The notes beneath the pieces were generated by a model that did no database searches, was not told where the DNA came from, and saw nothing but the letters and a program-made list of their open reading frames with translations. A stretch of 48,452 nt of DNA from a virus (lineage: Duplodnaviria; Heunggongvirae; Uroviricota; Caudoviricetes): the IMG/VR virus record IMGVR_UViG_2718218453_000005; one strand, written 5' to 3'. Both the position numbers and the translations under genes were made by a program. Below are positions 39,971 to 40,061 of this stretch, in pieces (the first letter of the stretch is position 1; the number at the start of each line of letters is the position of its first letter).

Positions 39971-39999
39971 AAAACTCTCCTGTTATTTCGAGCAGGAGG

Positions 40000-40013
40000 G
40001 TAACAATAGTTAC
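40000..40013. promoter_or_regulatory. putative operator palindrome GTAAC-N4-GTTAC (site 1)
   Basis: GTAACAATAGTTAC in divergent intergenic region between ydaS-like and repressor genes. Confidence 0.5.
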
Positions 40014-40047
40014 ATAGCAATGTCAACCATAGCAACATCACTTGGTA

Positions 40048-40061
40048 GTAACATTGGTTAC
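40048..40061. promoter_or_regulatory. putative operator palindrome GTAAC-N4-GTTAC (site 2)
   Basis: GTAACATTGGTTAC immediately upstream of repressor ATG at 40062. Confidence 0.5.

Follow-up and report, generated by a model that had tools for sequence, protein, structure and literature searches.

Predicted OR/OL operators and a probably leaderless repressor message in the lambdoid immunity region of a Rac-like prophage

We have analyzed the divergent region between the repressor gene and the cro-like gene of a full-length Rac-like prophage (~47 kb, next to ttcA), which is carried on a 48,452-nt stretch of virus DNA (IMG/VR record IMGVR_UViG_2718218453_000005), referred to below as the window. 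On the basis of sequence comparisons, we think it probable that the segment 39971–40061, together with a second segment at 40779–40827, makes up the operator-promoter system of a lambdoid immunity switch (the counterparts of the right and left operators, OR and OL, and early promoters, PR and PL, of lambda), with a repressor that starts at ATG 40062 and a maintenance transcript that is most likely leaderless. The palindromes in these segments appear to be operators of the repressor, a protein with an S24 peptidase domain, and the best available evidence for this assignment is that, in heteroimmune relatives, the sites change in concert with the recognition helix of the protein.

Palindromic sites on both sides of the repressor gene

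The divergent region is 91 bp long, as the initial annotation of this DNA had stated, and extends from the ATG of the cro-like gene, at 39970 on the minus strand, to the repressor ATG at 40062 on the plus strand. The same annotation had described 2 palindromes here, and we read both in the sequence as claimed: GTAACAATAGTTAC at 40000–40013 (O-left, OR1-like), which is conserved in relatives, and GTAACATTGGTTAC at 40048–40061 (O-right, OR3-like), which touches the repressor ATG (40062–40064). Both are exact, but the count of 2 was too low, since we find 5 sites in all. A third exact palindrome, GTAACTCTTGTTAC at 40811–40824 (OL1-like), had been missed; it starts 75 bp beyond the repressor stop codon. 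The other 2 sites are weak: an OR2-like site, O-mid (TCAACCATAGCAAC, 40023–40036), which retains 6 of 10 half-site bases and is assigned by positional homology, and an OL2-like site with 3 mismatches (GTACCTTTTGCAAC, 40779–40792). The exact pattern, GTAACNNNNGTTAC, is present in 3 copies in the 48,452-bp window, compared with 0.02 copies expected from dinucleotide shuffles (3 copies were reached in 0 of 100), and all 3 fall inside 825 bp around the repressor gene. Centers of adjacent operators in OR are 23 and 25 bp apart.

The repressor gene (40062–40736, plus strand, 224 aa) is followed on the same strand by an intrinsic terminator at 40743–40764 (CCCGCA-TTCAT-TGCGGG and TTTTT; fold -16.8 kcal/mol, z = -4.9) and then by a PL-like promoter at 40799–40827, which consists of a -35 sequence TTGACT (40799–40804), a 17-bp spacer and a -10 sequence TACCTT (40822–40827). 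The OL2-like site lies just to the 5' side of this -35 sequence, and the OL1-like site lies within the spacer and overlaps the -10 sequence. The window thus has the OL/PL layout of a lambdoid switch, with one exact operator in TTGACT-17-TACCTT and one weak operator, and the same layout was seen in phage mEp390 (described below).

We used tblastn to search phage records for relatives, and found repressors 42–44% identical to that of the window in Pectobacterium phage ZF40, Pantoea phage AH07, E. coli phage vB_EcoS-733R5 and Klebsiella phages; the regions upstream of these repressor genes have motifs of the window type in equivalent places. When one genome of each species was scanned with an alignment of four proteins, 21 more loci came to light, in Arsenophonus, Yersinia, Buttiauxella, Erwinia, Kluyvera, Rahnella, Edwardsiella, Celerinatantimonas and other genera. 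We observed that an ungapped 62-bp frame, made up of O-left, O-mid and O-right and followed by the ATG, is kept in 24 loci. In frame coordinates, O-left occupies positions 0–13 and is mostly GTAACAAAAGGTAC, O-mid occupies positions 23–36 (CAAAC-N4-GTTAC), and O-right occupies positions 48–61 (GTAACATT(G/A)GTTAC). Relative to the ATG, O-left is at -62 in 22 of the 24 relatives (-65 in locus L102) and O-right at -14 in 23. Information content approaches its maximum in the 3 OR sites and falls almost to zero in the 11-bp stretch that separates O-mid from O-right. The repressors of these relatives are just 41–53% identical, yet they share the helix SRVSVTKWE. An exact-pattern scan of IMG/VR yielded 81 more matches of the family type, which represent 50 distinct OR sequences; the frame is kept in 39 of the 40 most frequent of these 50, the exception being a second, in-frame match from locus L123. 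Among 80 near-identical IMG/VR copies of the region, variants fall mostly outside the operators, with divergence too low for a formal test. One further locus, L105 of Proteus penneri, encodes a similar helix, but its operators are eroded and no cro gene is present upstream, and we set it aside as uninformative.

The relatives also share the order of elements beyond the repressor gene, and the window conforms to it: a terminator (a T-run hairpin at the equivalent place), OL2, a -35 sequence TTGAC(A/C), OL1 and a -10 sequence TACATT. The OL2 equivalent in relatives is GTAAC-N4-GGTAC, GGAAC or AGTAC, located 32–35 bp upstream of OL1, and their PL, TTGAC(A/C)-17-TACATT, is in the same register as in the window. 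In 20 of the 24 relatives, one to three such palindromes lie 39–122 bp past the repressor stop codon. Exceptions include L090, where the site is at ~1.1 kb, and L102 and the truncated L085 contig, where it is missing.

Three phages provided the best available link between the sites and the repressor: mEp390 (L108; 378–442 and 1149–1197), YeP1 (L230) and vB_EcoM-720R4 (L232). In each, the frame is kept, and every site is GTAGG-N4-CCTAC or a near variant of it. In mEp390, the 62-bp length, the 3 OR positions and the OL2, -35, OL1, -10 order are unchanged from the GTAAC type, and O-mid reads TCAAGGATTCCTAC. The recognition helix of this group is (S/N)RVTVTGWE, in contrast to the near-invariant SRVSVTKWE of the GTAAC group. 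Since 5 sites change in concert with the recognition helix, we read the palindromes as operators of the repressor. The fixed positions in relatives and this covariation bear out the reading of the region as an immunity switch that had been proposed from the window alone. O-right also abuts the ATG in the 3 GTAGG-type phages. Such abutment is not universal among cI homologs; it is ruled out as a general rule by the e14-like phage vB_EcoM-689R6, which has a different helix and in which CTAAGATTACTTAG lies 22 bp before the ATG.

We give very little credence to the explanation that the palindromes are targets of the Cro-like protein alone or of some other factor, or that they are chance or structural repeats related to recombination or restriction. 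Lambdoid Cro proteins share operators with their repressors, so that binding by Cro is to be expected in addition. Chance, for its part, is excluded by the 3 exact copies, and the sites bracket both ends of the repressor gene and overlap the -10 and -35 sequences of both PR and PL. In the heteroimmune phages the sites also change together with the repressor helix, and the OL sites, which are distant from cro, are classic targets of a repressor.

Promoters, start codon and the form of the repressor message

The initial annotation had placed a TTGACA sequence on the minus strand between the palindromes. It is present at 40026–40021 (the plus strand reads TGTCAA), where it forms the -35 sequence of a PR-like promoter, and it pairs across 18 bp with the -10 sequence TACCCT (39997–40002, minus strand), which overlaps the left edge of O-left. 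The combination TTGACA-18-TACCCT scored 10.1 bits in a simple position weight matrix (PWM), and the PR position is the top leftward PWM match in 18 of the 24 relatives (TTGCTA-17-TACCTT). The predicted start of this transcript is near 39990, which would give the cro-like gene a leader of ~20 nt with the Shine-Dalgarno (SD) sequence AGGAG (39977–39981, minus strand), located 6 nt before the ATG and forming an anti-SD duplex of -7.4 kcal/mol. O-left thus overlaps the -10 sequence of PR and O-mid its -35 sequence, while O-right overlaps the putative -10 sequence of the promoter for repressor maintenance (PRM). A second leftward promoter, with TTTTCA (the complement of ATGAAAA) as its -35 sequence, appeared good in a few relatives, but its -10 sequence falls in the unconserved spacer and it is absent from the window; we attribute it to chance.

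Three in-frame start codons are available to the repressor gene, TTG 39963, ATG 40020 and ATG 40062, the frame being open from 39963. The RefSeq/PGAP gene model (40020–40736; WP_001394126.1, 238 aa) begins at the second of these, which is present in 80 of 80 near-identical IMG/VR copies, whereas the initial annotation had moved the start from TTG 39963 to ATG 40062. If the protein began at 40020 or 39963, O-mid and O-right would be coding sequence and the message would have a conventional leader. This we regard as very unlikely. Thirteen of 25 relatives lack any ATG, GTG or TTG in the stretch that leads from the upstream in-frame stop to the conserved ATG, and in 12 of 25 the codon equivalent to ATG 40020 (14 codons upstream) is a TAG stop. 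The -35 sequence of these 12 relatives is TTGCTA. ATG 40020 arises on the strand complementary to the PR -35 hexamer plus one base, such that TTGCTA yields TAG, and TTGCAT or TTGACAT yields ATG; ATG 40020 would therefore be conserved without being a start codon, because it complements the -35 region of PR. The 11 bp between O-mid and O-right, which are coding under the RefSeq model, are unconserved, and a gene that began at 39963 would overlap, on the opposite strand, the start of cro. None of the 3 candidates has an SD sequence, the anti-SD duplex energies being -3.0 (40062), +0.9 (40020) and +0.2 kcal/mol (39963). From 40062, the protein begins MKNTISERIR and has an N-terminal length equal to that of P22 C2, which, like the relatives of the window repressor, starts at the equivalent position, and the start is ATG in all of these relatives. 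We conclude that the repressor probably starts at ATG 40062, as the initial annotation had it, and that the RefSeq model has 14 codons too many; the entry WP_001394126.1 would be in need of a corresponding correction by 14 residues.

Start annotation varies among the records of this family: it is 14 codons upstream of the conserved ATG in E. coli RefSeq records, at a GTG 8 codons upstream in AH07, 26 codons upstream in ZF40, and at the conserved ATG in 733R5. The records with inconsistent starts are those for the window (40020–40736), L004 (1213) and L002 (1165).

The difference in SD sequences between the 2 divergent genes extends to the relatives, in which the mean anti-SD duplex energy was -9.3 kcal/mol for cro genes versus -3.3 kcal/mol for the repressor ATG (24 relatives), with a background of -1.8 kcal/mol. 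Since an SD sequence is lacking and ATG is universal, the simplest reading is a leaderless transcript, and we consider it likely that the repressor message is leaderless, with a predicted start at the A of the ATG or 1 nt before it. A -10-like sequence in agreement with this prediction, TAACAT, lies inside O-right on the plus strand (40049–40054) and ends 7 nt before the ATG; the candidate PRM is ACCATA-17-TAACAT in the window, and the corresponding -35 sequence in relatives is ACAACA. The last base of TAACAT, T, is invariant in O-right, and O-left and OL1 have A at the equivalent central position. In the GTAGG type, TAGGAT stands at the offset of TAACAT, and the central ATT is likewise present. 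Together, a TA..AT hexamer keeps a constant spacing to the ATG in 23 of the 24 GTAAC-type relatives and in the 3 GTAGG-type ones, with L102 displaced by 3 nt. We also looked for an extended -10 element (TGn) before TAACAT and rejected it, as the TG is one base too close.

Several observations weigh against the reading of the region as a lambdoid switch with a leaderless repressor message. A consensus promoter scan of 39600–41200 found no promoter; this promoter/terminator scan had strict thresholds and missed the repressor terminator as well, and the simple PWM and fold were used instead. No rightward match of the PWM in the window is convincing as a promoter, ACCATA-17-TAACAT being weak, and in 7 of 24 relatives the best rightward match is a different hexamer, TACATT, at the right edge of O-left (frame positions 11–16), which would leave a leader of ~38 nt. 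Conservation of TAACAT is, except for its last two bases, not independent of conservation of the operator, and in L102 the ATG is offset by 3 nt from the palindrome. If transcription starts at 40062, the centers of O-right, O-mid and O-left are at -7.5, -32.5 and -55.5, about one helical turn closer than in lambda. Judged by sequence alone, the O-mid and OL2 sites of the window do not stand out from chance matches, since sites with 3 or fewer mismatches occur at about chance frequency (161 versus 137 expected), and the weak sites at 40023–40036 and 40779–40792 therefore rest on positional homology with the relatives. Lastly, a full-text search of a literature library found no publication of the operator strings or of GTAAC/GTTAC operators, and the literature on phage ZF40 treats Aca2, not cI.

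Some of these points could also be accounted for if the gene started at 40062 on a message that is leadered and translated independently of an SD sequence, transcribed either from a -10 sequence at the edge of O-left (TACATA in the window, 40011–40016) or from a YdaT-activated promoter for repressor establishment (PRE) near 39790. The TACATT matches in 7 relatives, the very poor -35 sequence of the TAACAT promoter and the misfit with the geometry of activation in lambda, when +1 is placed at the ATG, are in its favor, and the SD-less ATG would then depend on SD-independent translation from an A-rich, unstructured region. There is, in addition, a candidate for the establishment promoter. An inverted repeat, TTGATTTTCATGAATCAT (39748–39765), which spans the stop codon of the cro-like gene and the start codon of the YdaT-like gene, differs by one mismatch from TTGATT-N6-AATCAA, the site at the ydaS end that was footprinted with YdaT of CP-933P (PMC9986795), and ~30 bp downstream of this box we read an extended -10 sequence, TGCTATCCT, on the plus strand (39784–39792). 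Possibly, the YdaT box is located near -42 of a PRE-like promoter that is directed at the repressor gene. Nevertheless, we consider a leadered maintenance message rather unlikely. In the window, the hexamer at the edge of O-left is without the final T that is critical, and its -35 partners are unconserved. A long leader would also leave unexplained the fact that operator and ATG strictly adjoin in two immunity types, the universal ATG and the conservation of the last T solely in O-right, and the characterized analogs are leaderless. The leaderless message is, for these reasons, the form that we prefer.

The repressor protein, the proposed switch and its prophage setting

The window repressor consists of an N-terminal HTH_3 domain and a C-terminal S24 peptidase domain (Pfam). 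Both domains align with lambda cI (3bdn, E = 1e-13), and P22 C2 is the nearest match of the N-terminal one (E = 3e-12). In the G-x-S-M motif, Ala takes the place of the catalytic Ser, the sequence being VEGDAMT in the window (GCG at 40470–40472, codon 137 from 40062) and VEGNSMT in lambda. Ala-Gly (99–100) and Lys-Lys (183–184) are retained. All of 24 distant relatives have the catalytic Ser, and near-identical IMG/VR copies have Ala in 78 of 80 cases and Ser (TCG) in 2. The window repressor thus lacks the combination of Ala-Gly and Ser/Lys dyad that goes with RecA-stimulated self-cleavage, which bears on inducibility and not on operator architecture. With Ser changed to Ala at the nucleophile, the repressor is predicted to be uncleavable and not inducible by the SOS response, and an uncleavable repressor would suggest a domesticated prophage.

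In the switch that we propose, a repressor dimer would bind the 14-bp GTAAC-N4-GTTAC sites. Occupancy of O-left would cover the -10 sequence of PR, and occupancy of O-mid its -35 sequence, so that the cro-like, YdaT-like and replication genes would be turned off; occupancy of OL1 and the weak OL2, which flank PL, would turn off kilR, recE, recT and their neighbors, PL being the promoter that would drive the rightward early genes ydaF, kilR, ydaE, recE and recT. O-right would be filled either by the repressor at high concentration or by the P22_Cro-family protein, and the maintenance promoter would then be off. Because O-mid would lie on the -35 sequence of PRM rather than beside it, positive autoregulation like that in lambda is not expected. 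O-right is the best palindrome in most relatives, which is opposite to the weak cI affinity of lambda OR3, and the central bases differ systematically, with AAAA or TAAA at the lytic operators versus ATTG at O-right; O-right may be a preferred site for Cro, or the central bases may set affinity. Which protein fills which site and in what order, as well as cooperativity and looping, are parts of the scheme that we infer.

As a tentative extension, which we put forward as possible but doubtful, the region could be a variant of the lambda switch in which the leaderless transcript is without lambda-style self-activation and the Ser-to-Ala lock has become fixed in the Rac-like lineage of E. coli. 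If this were the case, maintenance would depend on a weak constitutive promoter with purely negative autoregulation, or on activation from another site, and what had been an SOS-inducible switch would, in ~13% of complete E. coli genomes, keep kilR and the cro/YdaT genes locked. Of 5,426 complete genomes of E. coli, 701 carry the immunity cassette itself (coverage at least 80%).

The first 46 kb of the window are 99.8–100% identical to E. coli strain NDM1 (NZ_CP083888.1); beyond ~46,000 the two diverge, and recT of NDM1 carries an inserted IS1. Prophage cargo includes tail, capsid, terminase and lysis genes as well as trkG, ydaY, ynaK, kilR, sieB and recET. To the left of the divergent region, the cro-like gene (39755–39970, minus strand, 71 aa) opens the leftward lytic operon and is followed by the YdaT-family gene, which matches YdaT (PF06254) in Pfam, a replisome organizer gene and a DUF977 gene; to the right, the repressor gene (HTH_3 and Peptidase_S24) is followed by ydaF, sieB, kilR, ydaE, recE and recT. 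The initial annotation had called the divergently encoded protein YdaS-like, and here we disagree with it: the protein matches Pfam P22_Cro (E = 6.5e-16), its YdaS_toxin (PF15943) match of 17.7 bits is below the curated cut-off of 30, and RefSeq labels it a Cro/CI family regulator.

Megablast against 50,697 phage records detected no isolated phage that is near-identical in this region, the sole match being 60–70 bp of non-coding DNA downstream of PL. This segment, 40832–40900, just past the PL-like promoter, shares 93–100% identity with DNA that carries no annotation in several phages of E. coli (vB_EcoS-689R5, Tritos and others), and relatives of the main family hold a different, highly conserved stretch (…CAACAGCGAACAGGCAGGACGCCCACGAAGTAGCC) in its place. 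It could be an antitermination site of the nut or put kind; no Rfam family matched 40832–40900 at the gathering threshold. Elsewhere in the window, Rfam identified the RalA antitoxin small RNA (46718–46896, minus strand, 225 bits) and the sok antitoxin RNA (33046–33216, minus strand, 101 bits), the latter adjoining a Hok/Gef gene.

Relation to characterized immunity regions

The region is of the familiar lambdoid kind and well conserved, and the accepted picture of lambdoid regulation is unchanged by it. Our analysis defines the operator GTAAC-N4-GTTAC, PR, PL and a likely PRM for a widespread immunity type, which is found also in phages of Pectobacterium (ZF40, a model phage for anti-CRISPR studies), Pantoea, Klebsiella, Yersinia and others, and it probably adds one more to the leaderless repressors of prophages. 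The GTAAC/SRVSVTKWE and GTAGG/(S/N)RVTVTGWE groups, which share an identical scaffold, form a natural specificity-swap pair that could be useful for studies of DNA recognition by helix-turn-helix (HTH) proteins and for the design of orthogonal switches.

In lambda, the operators are 17 bp long, the OR centers are spaced by 24 and 23 bp, OR2 and OR3 are at -42 and -19, respectively, and the cI mRNA is leaderless. The window resembles lambda in its divergent repressor and cro genes, its three OR operators, a second operator cluster at the early promoter past the repressor gene, and an SD-less repressor start with a -10-like hexamer. It differs in that its operators are 14 bp (5-N4-5), its HTH domain is of the Xre, P22 C2 or 434 type, its OL is ~0.8 kb from OR, its CII analog is YdaT, and its repressor has Ala in place of the catalytic Ser. 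The initial annotation had likened the repressor start to that at lambda PRM; the comparison stands with regard to the missing SD sequence and the -10-like hexamer near the ATG, but not for the placement of the operators relative to the ATG, which is off by about one helical turn. The centers of O-right at -7.5 and O-mid at -32.5 do not reproduce the lambda positions of OR3 and OR2 or the geometry between OR2 and sigma.

P22 and phage 21 resemble the window in other respects, which include the P22 C2-like N-terminal domain of the window repressor and the P22_Cro family of its divergent gene. In phage 21, an annotated 18-bp operator (368–385 in the locus) adjoins ATG 386 of a P22 C2-type reading frame. 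The operators of these phages are, in contrast, 18 bp long and of the ATTTAAG type, and their repressors are ~36% identical to that of the window. Rac of E. coli K-12 is a shorter remnant with RacR, a short, unrelated repressor that has no peptidase domain, in place of a cI-type repressor. It shares with the window its backbone and chromosomal site (ttcA, ydaF, sieB, kilR, ydaE, recET, trkG, ralA) and the position of the immunity module. The immunity cassette of the window is, however, a different allele; its repressor belongs to the LexA/cI family, and its regulators are not of the RacR/YdaS kind.

Two systems in which leaderless repressor messages have been described complete the comparison. 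In the telomere phage PY54, cI is leaderless and so is cro (PMC4488713); that prophage is a linear plasmid with other operators, whereas the window cro gene has a clear SD sequence and a ~20-nt leader. In CP-933P of E. coli O157:H7, a cryptic prophage with an immunity region of the Rac or lambdoid type, the PaaR2 mRNA was found to be leaderless by 5' RACE and N-terminal sequencing (PMC8630535). CP-933P also has a 97-bp divergent region with repeated palindromes over PR and PRM, an OL/PL analog and YdaT as its CII analog (PMC8630535, PMC9986795), and its TTGATT-N6-AATCAA site is, like the inverted repeat of the window, at the cro/ydaT junction (PMC9986795). It differs from the window in that PaaR2 has an intact mass of ~15 kDa, with a toxin-antitoxin pair after it, in contrast to a 224-aa repressor with an S24 domain; in that its palindromes are four in number and 18 bp long, with the half-site consensus GTTTAGTAA; and in that its lytic regulator is of the YdaS family, rather than the P22_Cro family to which the window protein belongs.

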